Assembly: GCA_963771465.1 (NCBI GenBank)
Contig: CAVYTU010000017.1
Span: 896,001-960,000, forward strand
DNA length: 64,000 nt
Origin: an uncultured delta proteobacterium
Lineage (GTDB): Bacteria; Desulfobacterota; Binatia; UBA9968
Reading direction: 5' to 3'
The position numbers and the translations under genes are program-made. This document shows, piece by piece, positions 47,645 to 54,317 of this stretch (position 1 is its first letter; each line of letters begins with the position of its first letter). The notes under the pieces were generated by a model. It was not told the origin of the DNA and ran no database searches. It saw only the letters and a list, made by a program, of their open reading frames with translations.

Positions 47645-48282
47645 GTCGGCGGAGATCATCCCATTAGCACAGTGTTGCCCGAAGAACTGTTGAGGCACGG
47701 CGAAAATACGGCGATCTGATATTTCCCAGAAGATCGTCATAGACTAAAGACGCAAGATTTATTCACGGCGTCGATTTTTTGAAAAAATTCAGCGCCTCAC
47801 CGCCGCTACGCCGAGGCACGCCCCGAATTGAGCGAATGGCAAGTCATCAGGGCGAGAACTATCAGGGCGGCGTCAAAATCACGGCTACAGACCTGCGAAA
47901 CGTGTTTGCGACGGTCGTCATGGACAACGTAAGGAATCCGATACGGCGCGCCGACTCATGCGGCATACTTCGCTTCAGACGACGACGAAATATATGAGGT
48001 TGGTCAAAGACCGAATGCAAGATGCCGTCAAATTCTTGGGTAATTCCTTGGAGGCAAGTCTTGGGGGTAGATTTGGGGGCAACTTCCAACGTAAAAATGC
48101 TCAAAACGACATCATGCGCGAACTCCCTGCTACGGCTTGCTAAAACGCGAACCGCAGCAGGAATTCCGCGTTTCCCCTCGGTAAATCTTGTTGGCCTGGA
48201 GGGGAGAGTTGGTGGCGGTGGCGGGAGTCGAACCTGCGACGCCGCGGATATGAGCCGTCCGGTCAGGAAGAAAAGTAATTGA
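47645..48282 (+). pseudogene. Degenerate 3' part of a tyrosine integrase related to 53285-54298
   Basis: IFPRRSS*TK, IYSRRRFFEKI, TDLRNVFAT, LMRHTSLQTTTKY with a stop and frameshifts; also ends antisense to a tRNA 3' half. Confidence 0.85.
48210..48257 (-). other. Displaced 3' half of tRNA-Met (distal att site)
   Basis: CGGCTCATATCCGCGGCGTCGCAGGTTCGACTCCCGCCACCGCCACCA; 21-bp core 48237-48257 identical to 54268-54288; no 5' half. Confidence 0.9.
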
Positions 48283-48303
48283 TTTATAAGTCTTTTTTCC
48301 ACC

Positions 48304-48326
48304 GGGGGCCACACCTGGGGGCCATC
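48304..48326 (+). repeat. Putative integrase arm-binding direct repeats
   Basis: GGGGGCCACACCTGGGGGCCATC, 21/23 identical to 54115-54137. Confidence 0.7.
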
Positions 48327-48382
48327 CTAGCCAAAAAACGGCGTTTAGCGGGTCGAAACAACGCCATTGATGCGGTCTACGC

Positions 48383-48820
48383 ATGAGCGACGCACTACCA
48401 CCGCCAAAGAGCCGTCGTGAATACCAGAAGCACGGCACACACACACGAGACAAGCGCTTGCGGTCGCGTGGTCTTAGTGGAATCGACGGCAGAACTTCCG
48501 AAGGCCGCGAAGCGCTAAGCTGGCGCGATGCCGTGCTCAAATTGAAAGGTGGTGCCGCGTGTTCGTTCGCCGTCAAGACCGAAATCAAGCTGGCTTGCTT
48601 CGATCTTTTTCGGTTGTTGCACTTGCAATCGTACATGATCGCCGATTGCAACCACCGGCTAACGCTGGTCAACCGGCGCAAGCGCGAGCTGCCACGCATT
48701 CATGAGCAGTACGCCGAAATCGATCATCGGTTCTCGCGCCGCGTTGAAGGGTTGGACTTAGGCAAGGTGCCGCCGATGGACCTCGCGTCGAGATTGGCGC
48801 AAGCGACGGCGGAGCGATGA
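48383..48820 (+). CDS. Phage-related protein, possibly terminase-small-subunit-like
   Basis: Basic N-terminus with KHG and IDGRT followed by helices; first gene inside the att site. Confidence 0.45.
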   Translation: MSDALPPPKSRREYQKHGTHTRDKRLRSRGLSGIDGRTSEGREALSWRDAVLKLKGGAACSFAVKTEIKLACFDLFRLLHLQSYMIADCNHRLTLVNRRKRELPRIHEQYAEIDHRFSRRVEGLDLGKVPPMDLASRLAQATAER

Positions 48821-49330
48821 GTAAACAATATCGCGTCGAAATGTTTCTTATCCCACTCGCTCCAACATAATCGCACAGAGTAAATAGAAGACAAACGCCA
48901 GCACGATGAGTATCAAAACCTCCCACGGTCGCCATTCTCTCACCTTCCAAGATTGCATAAGCCCATGCCTGATGGGATCAGTGTTTTGCATACTGTTCCA
49001 TCTTAGTGCGGAGGCCCACTTCGGAAATCCCCGGTGGATAGTGGCCCAATTGCGACTCAGCGGTGTCCCAATTCGGCTTCACCGAAAGCAATGAGATCAG
49101 GGACAAGCAAGCAAACAACAGCGCCAGCAGTGTCCTTGTATTCATATATGCTCTCCGGTCTCGCGAGTTCCCGCAGACAAGAAATTCGGCCCTCCGGAAC
49201 TCGTCGGATTTCAAGTCTCATCTGCTCCCAGATAATTGCAGTATGCGTGACGGTTTCTGTCTAATATTAGACAGTTCCAAAAATATTTCGTTCGCGATTG
49301 GCGCAAGCGGTGGCAAGAGAGAGATGGATC

Positions 49331-49549
49331 ATGAGTCGTAAAGATATTGAGATTATCGAAGCAGAGACACGGCGGCTGGAAGCGCTCGGCATCGTCTTGG
49401 GCATGTTGGGATTGAAAGAGCCGAAGCGAGCCGGACGACGGCGCATGTACGTCACCGAAGCGGACCGGCAGAGAGCCTACCGAAAACGCAAGTCAGAGAA
49501 AGTCCGTGACTTGCAAAAACGTTCGCCCAGCAGCGTTGCAAGCTCGTGA
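49331..49549 (+). CDS. Small basic protein with ADRQRAYRKR motif
   Basis: GRRRMYVTEADRQRAYRKRK, typical of small mobile-element DNA-binding proteins. Confidence 0.55.
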   Translation: MSRKDIEIIEAETRRLEALGIVLGMLGLKEPKRAGRRRMYVTEADRQRAYRKRKSEKVRDLQKRSPSSVASS

Positions 49550-49660
49550 ATTCGTTGAAGTCTGTTGTTACGAAATTCGGCCAAATCGGTGAAGTGGCAC
49601 ATTACCATTTACCGGGGGAAACGTTACGAAATAAGGCGATAGCGATAGAGGTGATTGACG

Positions 49661-49831
49661 ATGAGTTTTGATCTTAAAAGTTGGAGTGAAGCGAACGGTT
49701 TCGCCTATTCTCCTTTTGGTTATCAACACACCGGCAAGATGGACAGCGATGTGATCTGCCGGGAGGGTTTAATCACCACAAGCGACGATGTGAACGGCTG
49801 GTTGCAATCGTTTCCGCAGATGAGCCTATGA
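49661..49831 (+). CDS. 56-aa hypothetical protein
   Basis: GAGGTG RBS; MSFDLKSWSEANGF...; below the ORF-track length cutoff. Confidence 0.4.
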   Translation: MSFDLKSWSEANGFAYSPFGYQHTGKMDSDVICREGLITTSDDVNGWLQSFPQMSL

Positions 49832-50086
49832 TGAGAAGCCAGCTATTCCAGTTCCAGCGTAACCGTCCCTGTTACTGTCAACCCAATCTTTGGCGAAAAT
49901 ATAGGCCGCCCTTTCAGCGTCTTTATATCTGTCAAAACTTCTCTCGAAGGCCCACTCCATCCAGAGCTTAACACGCTCCTGGCCGTTTTCGGTCCAGCTA
50001 ATTTTGGCAACAGGTTTAAAACCAATGCTGTCGTGAAAGGCGGAGGCACTGGACCGGATCAAGAACCCTTTGTAAGTTTGTTCCAT
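49826..50086 (-). CDS. Small hypothetical protein
   Basis: GGAG RBS before ATG 50086; MEQTYKGFLIR...AKDWVD. Confidence 0.6.
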   Translation of the reverse strand: MEQTYKGFLIRSSASAFHDSIGFKPVAKISWTENGQERVKLWMEWAFERSFDRYKDAERAAYIFAKDWVDSNRDGYAGTGIAGFSS

Positions 50087-50259
50087 TTCTCCACGGTAAA
50101 TCAACCGCCACGAGATTTCTGTCCAATACTGAACCAGACTTTAAAAAAAATTTAGGATACTATCAATTCGCCGGGAAGTGTGGACCAACGGCCATTTTAG
50201 CGCCGCAAGAAAGCGATGAGCAATGCTTAAACCAAAAGAGGGCCGGGCATGAAAAAACT

Positions 50260-50547
50260 TTATCTGATCTCTACGTCTCCTGCTTCACGTAAAGTCTTAC
50301 CGATTAACTTCCCTTTGTTAGCGTAAAGAAACGCAAAGTTGGTATCCCTAAAATTTTTCTTCCATAGGCAATTGCCAATACCCCAGGAAAGAACAATGCT
50401 AATTCCTGCGGGATGTGCGGGTTGAATGTTCTGGATTATTAAGCCGAGCAACTCGAACGTCGCTGGTATTAACGCCCCTGCCGCACCGACGGAAAAAAGT
50501 TTTGGCCAGGGAGACAATTCTTTATGGTTCCGTAAAAGCATCGGCAC
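50260..50547 (-). CDS. Small hypothetical protein
   Basis: 95-aa ORF ending GKTLREAGDVEI. Confidence 0.5.
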   Translation of the reverse strand: MPMLLRNHKELSPWPKLFSVGAAGALIPATFELLGLIIQNIQPAHPAGISIVLSWGIGNCLWKKNFRDTNFAFLYANKGKLIGKTLREAGDVEIR

Positions 50548-50698
50548 GTTTCTAAGCTTTGATGATACACGAAGCGGTCATCGCCGCCAAGGACGACGGA
50601 AACTCTCGTTGATGTTTCGGTGAGGACGATCCGAGTTGGGCCAAAGACGCAGCTATCGGTGAGAAGATGATAACGCTCGGTCTGAGAACCGTGACCTG

Positions 50699-51019
50699 TT
50701 AGAAAATTCCCAAAAGTCTTCGGACTTCTACCGCGCTGTTATCCAACAAGTAGTATCCGATTTGCCATCCGCGTTGATCGTATGCGAGATCGTCCTTGGT
50801 GACTTCGATCACGGTGACTACGACAAACCAAAACGCAAGCGAAAGGACGGCGCGGTCTGCGGGGTGTGGGAACTCTGGTGCGCTTACCAGAGATTGGTTT
50901 TCAAGTCGGTGTCTCAATCGGAGACCTAAAGTCGCGTAACAAAATTTTAGCGATTTCTCGGCAGCGAGCTTTCCATCACCGTCAGCAGATTTGAGCAACC
51001 AGATTCTCGCCATTGGCAC
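50699..51019 (-). CDS. Small hypothetical protein
   Basis: 106-aa ORF co-oriented with its neighbours. Confidence 0.45.
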   Translation of the reverse strand: MPMARIWLLKSADGDGKLAAEKSLKFCYATLGLRLRHRLENQSLVSAPEFPHPADRAVLSLAFWFVVVTVIEVTKDDLAYDQRGWQIGYYLLDNSAVEVRRLLGIF

Positions 51020-51147
51020 CGTTATGCAGCTTTCAGGACTTTCATTGGAGAGGCCCAGATATCAGTCGGTGCAGGAAAGCGCAAACGCTAGACGTCGCGG
51101 TTCTGCTCATGCAGCGGGCGGCATGGTAGCGATGTATCAGTGTGTTG

Positions 51148-51435
51148 CTAATCTGACTTACGAGCAGCCGTGATCGCCTTTGCGATTTCTTCAACGGCTT
51201 CAGGATAGACTGTGGCGGCTATGAACAGAAGTCTCTCCGCGTCTTCTATATCGCAGCGAATTTCTAATACACGTTCGAAATGATCTTCTTTGTATCTGCG
51301 AACAATGACGCCGTTATTGAGGATCGCAAATTCGCGTGAGGCCGGGTCGCACTTATCGACAAAGCCCTCATAAACGAGCAGTGTCATCAGAATGGTGGCT
51401 TGCACGGCGCAGACTTGTATAGAAATCGCCCACAC
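51148..51435 (-). CDS. Small hypothetical protein
   Basis: 95-aa ORF with natural composition; start uncertain. Confidence 0.5.
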   Translation of the reverse strand: MWAISIQVCAVQATILMTLLVYEGFVDKCDPASREFAILNNGVIVRRYKEDHFERVLEIRCDIEDAERLLFIAATVYPEAVEEIAKAITAARKSD

Positions 51436-51645
51436 CTGTCAACGAGCCAAAGTAAGAACAGCGACAATTTGAGACAGCGTTACACAAGTACCCCGACAAA
51501 TAACGCTTCGCGCGGAAGGCAGCACCAACGAACTAATCGGTGGACGTGAACCGTCTTGTAAACTTTGCTCGTGGTGCGAGATTGTGAACACTACAAGTCA
51601 GCGACGGCTGGTGAAATTGTGCCGTAAGCGGCTGAATGCTAGATT

Positions 51646-52284
51646 ATGGCTATGGACGATTGCTGTCAGTTAAAAGCGGGCGAACTCACGTCATTACGCA
51701 ACCAGCACCGGAACGTTCTCGTTTTCGTGTTGGTCATCAACGCCGTCTTATTCCTTGTAGAGGTTGCAGCCGGTTTGTTGGCGAACTCGACCGCATTGCT
51801 GGCTGATAGTCTCGACATGCTTGGCGATTCGCTCGTATACGGATTTAGCATGTACGTGCTTGGGCGTAGCGCGAAATGGAAGGCCAAGGTGGCGCTGCTG
51901 AAAGGCGCGATAATGGCCATGTTCGGCGCAGTCGTTCTCTTGGAAGCGGCTCACAAGACAATCGCTGGTACGGTGCCGACTGCTGAGACTATGGGAGTTA
52001 TCGGGACACTGGTGTTGCTCGGTAACGGTATTTGCTTCTTTTTGCTTTTTCGCCACCGGTCCGATGACATAAACATGCGCTCAACGTGGCTGTGTTCGCG
52101 CAACGACATCATCGCGAATGTGTCGGTGATTGTGGCCGCGATTTGGGTAAAACTCCTTGACGCGAGTTGGCCGGATATTCTCGTCGGAGTCGCCATCTCT
52201 GCTTTGTTCATGCGAAGCGCTATCACAGTGCTTCGCGACTCGCTATCGGAACTGCAAATGCGAAGGACCGCAGTCTCCGACTAG
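51646..52284 (+). CDS. Cation diffusion facilitator (CzcD-like) lacking the C-terminal domain
   Basis: N-terminal DDCC, STALLADSLDMLGD, NMRSTWLCSRND, WPD; 6 TM. Confidence 0.88.
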   Translation: MAMDDCCQLKAGELTSLRNQHRNVLVFVLVINAVLFLVEVAAGLLANSTALLADSLDMLGDSLVYGFSMYVLGRSAKWKAKVALLKGAIMAMFGAVVLLEAAHKTIAGTVPTAETMGVIGTLVLLGNGICFFLLFRHRSDDINMRSTWLCSRNDIIANVSVIVAAIWVKLLDASWPDILVGVAISALFMRSAITVLRDSLSELQMRRTAVSD

Positions 52285-52341
52285 GCCGTTTGAGACTCCG
52301 CTTCGACTTGACGGACTTTGGGCACCTGTTAGATTACCATC

Positions 52342-52830
52342 ATGAACAGGCGAGATTTTCTTATTCAGGGTTTTGTTTTGGCTGCTGCTGTCTCGCTGCC
52401 GGAGTTAGTCTTTGGGGCGACGCAACACGCCTACAAACTAGCGCCAACCTCAATCCTGCCGGAACAGATTAGGAAAGGCCCGGTCGAAACAAGAGATGCC
52501 TATCGCTTCGCCGTCCTAAACCGAGACGTTCTCCGCTATATTCCCTGTTACTGTGGCTGTTGGGACTCGGTTGGGCATACGAGCAACGCTTCGTGCTACG
52601 TCAAGGACAAATCTCCTATAGACAAACCGGAGTTTGATCCTATGAGCGTTGGCTGACAAATTTGCATAGACATCACGCGTGACGTGATGAAGCTGATGGA
52701 CGAAGGCAGGAGATTGAAAGACATCAGACTGCATATCGAGAAAACGCACAGTCAGAAAGGACCAGGCACCCCGACGCCAGCGGTGCCGGAGAGTTACAAA
52801 GAATTTTGGCCGGTAAGAAAGCGAGGTTAG
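52342..52830 (+). CDS. Tat-exported PCYCGC-motif protein with in-frame TGA (candidate selenoprotein, UxxC)
   Basis: MNRRDFL Tat motif; IPCYCGC, H.SNASC; TGA 52654-52656 followed in frame by QICIDITRD...GPGTPTP up to TAG 52830. Confidence 0.8.
52671..52689 (+). promoter_or_regulatory. Candidate bacterial SECIS hairpin
   Basis: CATCACG-CGTGA-CGTGATG, a perfect 7-bp stem starting after a 14-nt spacer downstream of the TGA. Confidence 0.55.
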
Positions 52831-52832
52831 CT

Positions 52833-53084
52833 ATGAAGAAAATGCTATTCGGAATTCTTGGAGGCTTGCTAATTGCCACAGCAGTCGGCGCATATCAGGC
52901 CGAAGATAAGAAAAGTGAGTCGCCGATGGGCGGAATGATGCAGGGCATGAAGATGATGGGTGAACAGTCGCCTGAGATGACGCAACAGATGAAAGAAATG
53001 ATGGCTCGGATGTCCAAAATGATGGATATGTGCAGCCAGATGATGAGTAATAATCGGTCAAATCAGCAGCCAGAAAATAAGTAA
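52833..53084 (+). CDS. Small exported Met-rich protein (putative Cu/Ag binder)
   Basis: GAGGT RBS; Sec-pathway signal peptide; MGGMMQGMKMM...MKEMMARMSKMMDMCSQMM. Confidence 0.75.
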   Translation: MKKMLFGILGGLLIATAVGAYQAEDKKSESPMGGMMQGMKMMGEQSPEMTQQMKEMMARMSKMMDMCSQMMSNNRSNQQPENK

Positions 53085-53284
53085 GTTCTTCCTGGCAAGT
53101 TCCGTTGTTGAAAACGTGCGGTTATGAAAGATCGCGCGATAAATTGCGTGCGCGGCTGATGGCTTCAAGACCATCCGCCTGCACCACCGGAAGCGCTGGC
53201 CAACGTCGTATCGCGCTACCTCGTCGATAGCGCCGATCCATCGGTAGGTAGGTCGCAACACCGGATAACGCGCTTTTCTGGAAC

Positions 53285-54298
53285 ATGAACAAGTTCGTAC
53301 TTAAATTTTTCGGCGAGACGACTCTAGTCGGCAACATCAAGGATGAGCAGATCAACGAGTTCATCAAGAAATATCGGCAAGGTCGAAAGCCAAAGACCAT
53401 GAAAAATATTTTCACAGACCTGAATGCGTTGCTTAACTACGCGGTGCAAAAAAAACTCTTAAAAGTGAATCCGGCAAACTTCGCCAACCGCGAACTTATC
53501 GGCAACACCAAGAGCAAAAAGCCTCAGCTTAACTTGGACGAAGTCCGAATGGCGTTGTCGGTGCTCAATGACAAGAGAGTGCTCAAGCGAGAGCGGGTAT
53601 GGTTTCTGGTCGGGATCATGACCGGTGGTCGGATGGACGAAGTAAATCGTGCGCAGTGGCCGGATGTTGATTGGACTGCGCGCGAAATCCATATACGCGG
53701 CACCAAAACCGATTCTGCCGACGCCAAGCTGCCGATTCCGCCGCCGCTGTTCGCCGAGTTGGTCGATCTCTACCGGCATAGAGAAACCTCAGACTATATT
53801 TTTCCTGGCGCGTCTTCGCAGACGAAAAATAAGAAAATCTACTCGCGCCGTCGTCTGTTCGAAAAGATACGCAAACTAGTCTTCGAACGGTACGACCGGC
53901 ATATCAAGCTTACGCCGAAAGATTTGCGCGATATCTACGCAACCGACGTGTCGGCGCTAGTTCGCGATCCGGAAACGCTCATGCACTTAATGCGGCACAG
54001 CAGCTTGACCACGACCACGAAGTATCTGCGCGGGGTAAAAGACCGCATGGTGGAAGCGGCGAAGGGCGTTGGTCAACAGTGGGTTCCGGCGCTTACTGAC
54101 GACGAAAAAAGCCTGGGGGCCACCTCTGGGGGCCATCTTGGGGTCGAAATAGTGCCTAAAAGGCCGCAAAACGCACAAAGCGACACGGCCAGATTGTCGC
54201 CGGAAAATCCGCTAACTACTCGGAATACATGGGGAAAAATTGGTGGCGGTGGACAGAGTCGAACTGTCGACGCCGCGGATATGAGCCGCGTGCTCTGA
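53285..54298 (+). CDS. Tyrosine recombinase/integrase overlapping tRNA-Met antisense
   Basis: TGGRMDE (R), RGTK (K), KDLR, MRH, TKY catalytic set; last about 19 codons lie on the tRNA antisense strand. Confidence 0.92.
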   Translation: MNKFVLKFFGETTLVGNIKDEQINEFIKKYRQGRKPKTMKNIFTDLNALLNYAVQKKLLKVNPANFANRELIGNTKSKKPQLNLDEVRMALSVLNDKRVLKRERVWFLVGIMTGGRMDEVNRAQWPDVDWTAREIHIRGTKTDSADAKLPIPPPLFAELVDLYRHRETSDYIFPGASSQTKNKKIYSRRRLFEKIRKLVFERYDRHIKLTPKDLRDIYATDVSALVRDPETLMHLMRHSSLTTTTKYLRGVKDRMVEAAKGVGQQWVPALTDDEKSLGATSGGHLGVEIVPKRPQNAQSDTARLSPENPLTTRNTWGKIGGGGQSRTVDAADMSRVL

Positions 54299-54317
54299 CC
54301 AACTGAGCTACACCGCC
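54241..54317 (-). tRNA. tRNA-Met (CAT), probably elongator
   Basis: GGCGGTGTAGCTCAGTTGGTCAGAGCACGCGGCTCATATCCGCGGCGTCGACAGTTCGACTCTGTCCACCGCCACCA; paired G1-C72; Ile2 identity not fully excluded. Confidence 0.93.

Follow-up and report, generated by a model that had tools for sequence, protein, structure and literature searches.

The 64,000-nucleotide stretch analyzed here (hereafter the window; positions 896,001 to 960,000 of contig CAVYTU010000017.1 from an uncultured delta proteobacterium of the Binatia) carries on its forward strand a gene of the PCYCGC/CYCXC family whose reading frame is interrupted by a TGA. The annotated open reading frame (ORF; 52342..52656) runs from ATG 52342 to TGA 52654-52656. 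Past this triplet the frame holds 57 further sense codons (QICIDITRDVMKLMDEG...GPGTPTP...) and closes at TAG 52828-52830, leaving a gap of two nucleotides before ATG 52833 of the next gene. The first-pass annotation, made from the letters of the window, had described this continuation together with a hairpin just 3' of the TGA, and had proposed a hidden selenoprotein; every coordinate of the ORF end, the continuation, the TAG, the gap and the hairpin was confirmed. With TGA translated as selenocysteine (Sec, U), the full coding sequence (52342..52830) gives a protein of 162 residues with U105 in a U105-Q-I-C108 motif (peptide context SVG-U-QIC). The family assignment rests on an alignment with 33 homologs and on the Pfam domain PF13798 (PCYCGC), which covers residues 34-147 with 81.8 bits against a gathering cut-off of 25 and spans the TGA. 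The open frame after the TGA is unremarkable by itself, since 26 of the 120 long TGA-closed frames of the window likewise stay open for at least 57 codons more.

Homologs were collected from the host genome, from 401 sampled genomes of the phylum (22 with a match), from one scan of a metagenome collection (15 further loci) and from one scan of a genome collection (four further). The 43 resulting loci (L021-L063) were read in frame, and 42 were readable at the site, L057 being cut before it. Analysis of the aligned codon revealed TGA in 18 of the readable loci and TGC or TGT in the other 24, so that the in-frame UGA is paired with a cysteine of homologs. The loci with TGA are the window, its paralog, L023, L024, L027, L045-L056 and L060; by source they are the window, the same-genome paralog, 12 metagenome contigs, one metagenome-assembled genome (MAG) and the genomes G036, G399 and G110. 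TGA is present in each of the 13 close relatives whose sequence covers the site. L045, which is 99-100% identical to the window, probably stems from the same organism and is therefore not independent of it. The paralog lies on another contig (G000:C13:136694-137188; L022 1501-1992), is 70% identical, and has both TGA at the aligned codon and an identical hairpin. The sequencing error envisaged by the first-pass annotation, with TGC or TGT in independent contigs, was not seen: DNA contigs of two further runs never show a letter other than TGA at 52654-52656, and a more distant DNA contig reads ...MSLA and then TGA. On the side of the cysteine forms, 123 of the cluster representatives (best 150 of 1024 at 50% identity) have CxxC at the site, in agreement with the later CxxC that had been attributed to PCYCGC proteins. 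L027 is a Sec form among cysteine forms of another subfamily, a placement which suggests that Sec and Cys have been exchanged more than once.

The closest named relative, L060 4001-4487 (84% identity), comes from a MAG labeled 'uncultured delta proteobacterium'; a frameshift, perhaps introduced by assembly, divides its gene between residues 59 and 60. In relatives, a TGA close to the C-terminus (…K-TGA-GG) was also considered as a second Sec codon and rejected. At that position the window has CGA, followed two codons later by TAG, and the TGA is therefore read as a genuine stop that overlaps the ribosome-binding site of the following gene.

The hairpin 3' of the UGA is a perfect 7-bp stem (52671-52689; arms CATCACG 52671-52677 and CGTGATG 52683-52689) closed by the loop CGTGA (52678-52682), with 21 nucleotides between the UGA and the loop and a G at loop position 2. 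Extended by a lower helix (52661-52667/52693-52700), it forms an element resembling a selenocysteine insertion sequence (SECIS) at 52661..52700 on the forward strand, as judged from folds, pair counts, synonymous-site conservation and rarity. According to the description of bSECISearch, bacterial elements reportedly consist of a stem-loop just 3' of the UGA with its apical loop about 16-37 nucleotides downstream and a G early in the loop, and all three features are found here. Such hairpins are rare. Of the 1986 TGA triplets on both strands of the window, only 9 precede a perfect 7-bp hairpin with G at loop position 1-2 and a loop start 16-37 nucleotides downstream.

Comparison of the TGA loci revealed how this element is kept. 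In L023, with a protein identity of just 35-40%, the letters of the hairpin are identical to those of the window; L024 retains the CGUGA loop while three pairs of its stem (CGGCG/CGCUG) are changed on both sides; and in L027, from the other subfamily, a GC-rich stem of different sequence carries a GGA loop 23 nucleotides after the UGA. Pairing holds in 93.3% of cells over 15 TGA sequences but in 14-63% once the partners are slid, and four double-sided pair changes were observed versus 0.4 in shuffles (none of 500 shuffles reached four). A codon test independent of L024 was made on 11 Sec-clade genes, by counting, among sequence pairs with the same amino acid, those that also use the same codon. 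This share is 90.8% for hairpin codons 110-116 (265/292), as compared with 47.4% for residues 28-104 (1410/2974) and 52.5% for residues 121-150 (567/1079). The codons of I111, T112, D114 and V115 are identical in 55 of 55 pairs each, and among the hairpin codons only that of R113, with its third base in the loop, varies. Most cysteine forms have no hairpin at that place, L040 having a GC-rich one. Judged from these alignments, the conservation of the RNA element resembles that of a structure under selection.

The host genome, a 6.9-Mb assembly of 19 contigs, encodes selA, selB, selC and selD, the machinery whose presence the first-pass annotation had presupposed, all four above curated cut-offs. 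The tRNA-Sec (selC) scores 76.7 bits against a cut-off of 47 and is called SeC(tca) by ARAGORN; selA, selB and selD (614, 358.6 and 376.3 bits) stand in a row on one contig (G000:C14:197319-201637; L017, L009, L019). The host selD itself contains one in-frame TGA, which indicates that the selenophosphate synthetase is also a selenoprotein. TGA is an ordinary stop in this DNA, ending 14 of the 49 long frames of the window, and a recoded genome with TGA as Trp or Gly was rejected on this ground.

Four independent lines, namely the host machinery, the Sec/Cys pairing among homologs, the continuation of the protein and the selected RNA structure, favor reading the UGA as a Sec codon. The three checks by which the first-pass annotation could have been refuted (TGA in no other homolog, no Sec machinery in the host, TGC or TGT in the reads) all came out on its side, TGA being present in 17 other loci. 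We consider that the UGA at 52654-52656 (forward strand) is very probably decoded as selenocysteine, so that the 162-residue protein of the first-pass annotation is strongly supported. SelB charged with Sec-tRNA(Sec) would bind the stem-loop starting about 7 nucleotides after the UGA, as suggested by the anatomy of the site and the presence of the machinery, and insertion of Sec would then place U105-x-x-C108 at the N-terminal end of a helix, according to the structural model.

The same gene is cut short in protein databases. In a collection of 5.8 billion proteins, 115 of the best 120 of 490 hits, the window's own ORF included, stop at ...MS[x][A/G], just short of U105, which confirms that annotators truncate the gene as had been anticipated. 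Among the 150 best of the 1024 cluster representatives, ten end right before the site, two carry W or G at it, and one, P0236, is a separate 57-residue ORF product equal to the C-terminal part. Leu, Arg, Trp or Gly occupies the Sec position in P0019, P0020, P0061, P0023, P0231 and P0263; each such residue is a single base change from TGA or would result from a gene call under code 4 or code 25.

Conservation of the protein was examined in alignment A1, comprising the window and 33 homologs. The invariant columns are Y54, A57, C69, C71, C73, H79, C85 and C108, while U/C105 and G122 are kept at 90% or more; C108 and G122, like the span of PF13798, show that conservation continues downstream of the UGA. 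The PCYCGC motif itself (P68-C73; 52543..52560, forward strand) contributes C69, C71 and C73, invariant in 34 of 34 sequences. Together with H79, C85, U105 and C108 they make up seven conserved ligand-type residues. The TPTP-like tail that the first-pass annotation ascribed to PCYCGC proteins was found in a subset (7 of the 123 CxxC representatives by pattern, 19 of the 34 A1 rows by reading) but does not hold as a family-wide feature.

The N-terminus (residues 1-27; 52342..52422, forward strand) reads as a signal peptide with a twin-arginine-like NRRDFLI motif, recognized by eye and followed by a hydrophobic stretch and then FGA. In signals of the twin-arginine translocation (Tat) pathway, a S/T-R-R-x-F-L-K-type motif precedes a hydrophobic stretch and a cleavage site of the A-x-A type. 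All nine Sec-clade genes with a complete N-terminus share MNRR[DAE]F. An AlphaFold2 (AF2) model of the protein, with a mean predicted local distance difference test (pLDDT) score of 85.7 and a predicted template modeling (pTM) score of 0.77, is mostly helical, shows low confidence over the N-terminal signal region and locates U105 just before helix 106-120.

The novelty as a selenoprotein family implied by the first-pass annotation did not survive the comparison with known families: this is not a new selenoprotein family but one already listed as predicted. NCBIfam holds NF041379, 'OS_HP4_CYCXC, CYCXC family (seleno)protein', and Table 1 of a 2026 review has the entry 'CYCXC family protein (OS_HP4), PF13798, UxxC, 1 Sec' (PMC13188914), as a table in a 2022 review has 'Hypothetical protein OS_HP4 ... 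UxxC' (PMC9312934). The reference given for OS_HP4 in the 2026 review is the 2007 Olavius symbiont paper (PMC13188914). The main text of that paper gives OS_HP1-3 only, in its Table 2, without OS_HP4 (PMC1976440), and the main text of the 2008 Global Ocean Sampling (GOS) paper likewise names only OS_HP1-3 (PMC2398784). Our literature search for an experimental study of the PCYCGC/CYCXC family found none.

The window protein scores 58.9 bits with NF041379, below the cut-off of 90, as do L023 (60.4), L024 (69.3), L033 (54.1) and L058 (44.9). The sequences that pass form a short subfamily, with the Sec form L027 at 107.3 bits and L028-L031 and L037 at 112-127. As in that family, Sec or Cys is the first residue of a [U/C]xxC after CxCxC, and U105 falls in one column with the U of L027 and the Cys of the passing members. 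The two groups also share the Pfam domain and the invariant CxCxC...H...C...[U/C]xxC arrangement, and the OS_HP4/NF041379 family, too, is known by computational prediction only. The window clade differs in an 11-residue insertion before UxxC (KDKSPIDKPEF), in a GPxTPTP tail plus EFW extension, in an RRDFL signal instead of a lipobox or membrane anchor, and in a fixed neighborhood with a Met-rich protein and a cation diffusion facilitator (CDF). By its sequences, it is a sister clade within PF13798, set apart from the NF041379 model and its passing members.

Three other groups of proteins provide points of comparison. Twin-arginine export of a Sec protein is known from the catalytic subunits of periplasmic formate dehydrogenases (FdnG/FdoG type), which gives the export of a folded selenoprotein a precedent; the likeness lies in the signal, in the window a motif read by eye, whereas FdnG and FdoG are large molybdopterin enzymes with no homology to the window protein. 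In Parageobacillus thermoglucosidasius, a cysteine-form PCYCGC lipoprotein is reported to adjoin an Fe3+ binding protein and to have the conserved PCYCGC Cys and further conserved cysteines (PMC13068155). It shares the domain and an extracytoplasmic location, as described there, but has Cys at the site, a lipoprotein anchor and another neighborhood. The 2026 review table also lists Sec proteins of metal handling, namely a putative mercuric transport protein, a metal-binding protein with UxxU, CopZ-family forms and an SO_0444 family Cu/Zn efflux transporter with UxC (PMC13188914). A shared working principle may be proposed by analogy, with Sec in place of a metal-ligand Cys in soft-metal transport, although the entries of that table belong to unrelated folds and families, and searches of PDB sequences and structures gave no link.

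The gene is flanked on both sides by possible functional partners. Upstream on the same strand lies a short CDF of 212 residues (51646..52284), matched in its membrane domain only by PF01545 (77 bits against 26.6) and TIGR01297 (85.4 against a cut-off of 82.35). It begins MAMDDCC, and its paralog MDDCC; this conserved N-terminal Cys pair is unusual. Directly 3' of the Sec-form gene, after the 2-nucleotide gap, an 83-residue Met-rich secreted protein (52833..53084, forward strand) contains Met runs such as MGGMMQGMKMMGE and a single Cys, and matches no Pfam or NCBIfam family. In 11 loci the Met-rich gene comes immediately after the Sec-form gene, and in four (L022, L047, L051, L055) a CDF adjoins the Sec-form gene. 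This three-gene module is present twice in the host genome, in the order CDF, selenoprotein, Met-rich protein in the window and selenoprotein, Met-rich protein, CDF at the paralog (L022; partner genes 2000-2917). In L048, a CusF-like gene lies upstream, and there is a metallo-beta-lactamase and rhodanese pair. S-adenosylmethionine (SAM)-dependent methyltransferases also flank the module (L048 3436-4086; L060 4695-5438 and 2747-3583), with one on the downstream side in both L048 and L060; the best, sub-threshold NCBIfam match of one is arsenite methyltransferase, a hint that some lineages may use the module in a metalloid setting.

A promoter-like element on the forward strand (TTGACG-16-TAGATT with a TG extension; 52308..52335), obtained by pattern search, ends 6 nucleotides before the ATG and is common to the window, L046, L048 and L060, that is, to 4 of the 10 aligned upstream regions. 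With one such pattern found and 2.0 expected, it is not significant alone. A promoter at this position would give a leaderless or nearly leaderless selenoprotein mRNA, and no obvious Shine-Dalgarno sequence was seen upstream of ATG 52342.

Downstream of the module, a tyrosine recombinase of the phage integrase family (53285..54298, forward strand; PF00589, 49.6 bits) marks what appears to be an island edge. It abuts a tRNA-Met(CAT) on the reverse strand (54241..54317; ARAGORN), the likely integration site, and an att-like partial copy of the tRNA's 3' part at 48201..48257 (unstranded; a 57-nucleotide direct repeat with 84% identity and a spacing of 6031) is the likely far end. This arrangement suggests that the module is cargo of an island of about 6 kb (48201-54317). 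ORFs of at least 110 residues are absent from the left half of this island (48.3-51.6 kb).

Taken as a whole, we find it highly probable that the locus encodes one 162-residue PCYCGC/CYCXC Sec protein; its export and its part in periplasmic soft-metal handling, like the Tat export and the metalloprotein character put forward in the first-pass annotation, are inferred. In the proposed mechanism, the N-terminal RRDFL signal would take the protein to the periplasm, where the most likely task of C69, C71, C73, H79, C85, U105 and C108 would be to bind a thiophilic metal ion or pass it on, and the selenoprotein would act with the downstream Met-rich secreted protein and the upstream short CDF exporter. 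It is the combination of the seven ligand-type residues with a Met-rich partner and an exporter that points to the handling of thiophilic metals in the periplasm.

Several results weigh against parts of this explanation. On the RNA side, the whole 76-nucleotide stretch folds no better than shuffles (z = 0.08), only the local hairpin standing out in it, and an Rfam search of 52300-52900 gave no match at E <= 10. The covariation of the hairpin rests mostly on one sequence, L024. The hairpin encodes ITRDVM, which is kept too by the close cysteine form P0004, so part of its conservation is at the protein level. In the databases, five of the best 120 hits read through the site with Cys (one), Leu (one), Arg (two) or Trp (one), showing that the residue in database calls is not always Sec or Cys. 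The RNA contigs X18 and X19, from two metatranscriptome runs, span only 52827-53092, which is the Met-rich gene and not the selenoprotein gene, and are therefore uninformative on the expression of the latter. As to export and function, no Tat-signal hidden Markov model matched at E <= 0.01 in Pfam or NCBIfam. A Foldseek search of the model against the PDB returned nothing at E <= 0.001, its best faint row being CcmH (2hl7, rank 3, probability 0.09), and the A1 profile retrieved only chance-level rows from PDB sequences (saposin, E = 0.0057; CcmH 2kw0, E = 0.58). The neighbors in the wider family are mixed: in a tally of 125 of the 142 ORFs picked (17 from L059 and L062 were omitted as near-duplicates of L058), cytochrome b occurs 6 times, TPR/CcmH-type proteins 5, FeS/Fer4 proteins 5, BlaI/BlaR1 4 and methyltransferases 4. 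As no single theme emerges from this tally, the functional lead was taken only from the window's own clade.

Two alternatives deny the Sec codon. If the TGA were a true stop, the product would be a protein of 104 residues, and the downstream stretch would be untranslated or form a small gene of its own, starting for example at GTG 52684; this is how gene callers treat 115 of the best 120 homologs, a 48-residue ORF does start at that GTG, and the 57-residue product P0236 corresponds to the C-terminal part. Yet both parts are one protein with a junction Cys in 24 loci and in 123 of the 150 cluster representatives, the Pfam domain bridges the junction, and C108 and helix 106-120 lie upstream of GTG 52684. 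With the Sec machinery and a conserved SECIS-like hairpin also present, we regard a true stop as very unlikely. A nonsense mutation in a pseudogene, or a sequencing or assembly error for TGC or TGT, is scarcely credible: TGA is indeed one base from either codon, and the L060 gene from a MAG is frameshifted elsewhere, but 17 other loci from independent assemblies, the second copy in this genome among them, have TGA at the same codon. Neither the DNA contigs over 52654-52656, which have no other letter, nor the relative's contig with ...MSLA-TGA fit an error, and the frame and amino acids downstream are conserved.

The main rival accepts a real selenoprotein and differs on its function: a periplasmic thiol/selenol-disulfide oxidoreductase, for example in the maturation of cytochromes or envelope proteins, in which U105-x-x-C108 would be a redox pair and no metal would be bound. 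The UxxC at the N-terminal end of a helix in the AF2 model suits this function, and so do the neighbors of cysteine forms, which include cytochrome b (6/125 ORFs) and CcmH/CycH-type TPR proteins (5/125). According to the 2026 review, most uncharacterized UxxC/CxxU selenoproteins are probably redox proteins (PMC13188914). The only faint likeness in the PDB is also to CcmH, but neither 2hl7 nor 2kw0 is significant and the likeness stays at chance level. Five more invariant ligand-type residues (C69, C71, C73, H79 and C85) would be superfluous for a simple redox pair, and the window's own clade has the Met-rich secreted protein and the CDF exporter as its fixed neighbors, to which L048 adds a CusF-like gene. 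We therefore judge an oxidoreductase without metal somewhat unlikely. When metal handling is set directly against thiol/selenol redox chemistry, the sequences leave the case for metal at about even.

A more specific form of the metal-handling explanation can be offered as a conjecture that we think rather unlikely to hold in full. The protein would be a distinct twin-arginine periplasmic selenoprotein and the metal-capturing part of a horizontally mobile three-gene soft-metal module, its selenolate binding Cu(I), Ag(I), Hg(II) or Cd(II) more tightly or faster than Cys would. The short CDF of such a module, without a cytoplasmic domain, would differ from usual CDF exporters.

The window thus provides a clean, well-supported selenoprotein gene split by standard gene calling, and no new kind of biology. 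The same cut-in-two error hits essentially the whole clade in public protein collections. The NF041379 model misses the window clade; with a model based on the present sequences, many annotations in metagenomes of soil, rhizosphere and sediment would be put right. For the family, the partnership with the Met-rich protein and the CDF, sometimes on an integrase island, is the first testable functional lead. If the metal-capturing proposal is true, this would be a selenium-dependent metal-resistance module hidden in current annotation, where it is invisible because nearly all of its selenoprotein genes are called as 104-residue stubs.

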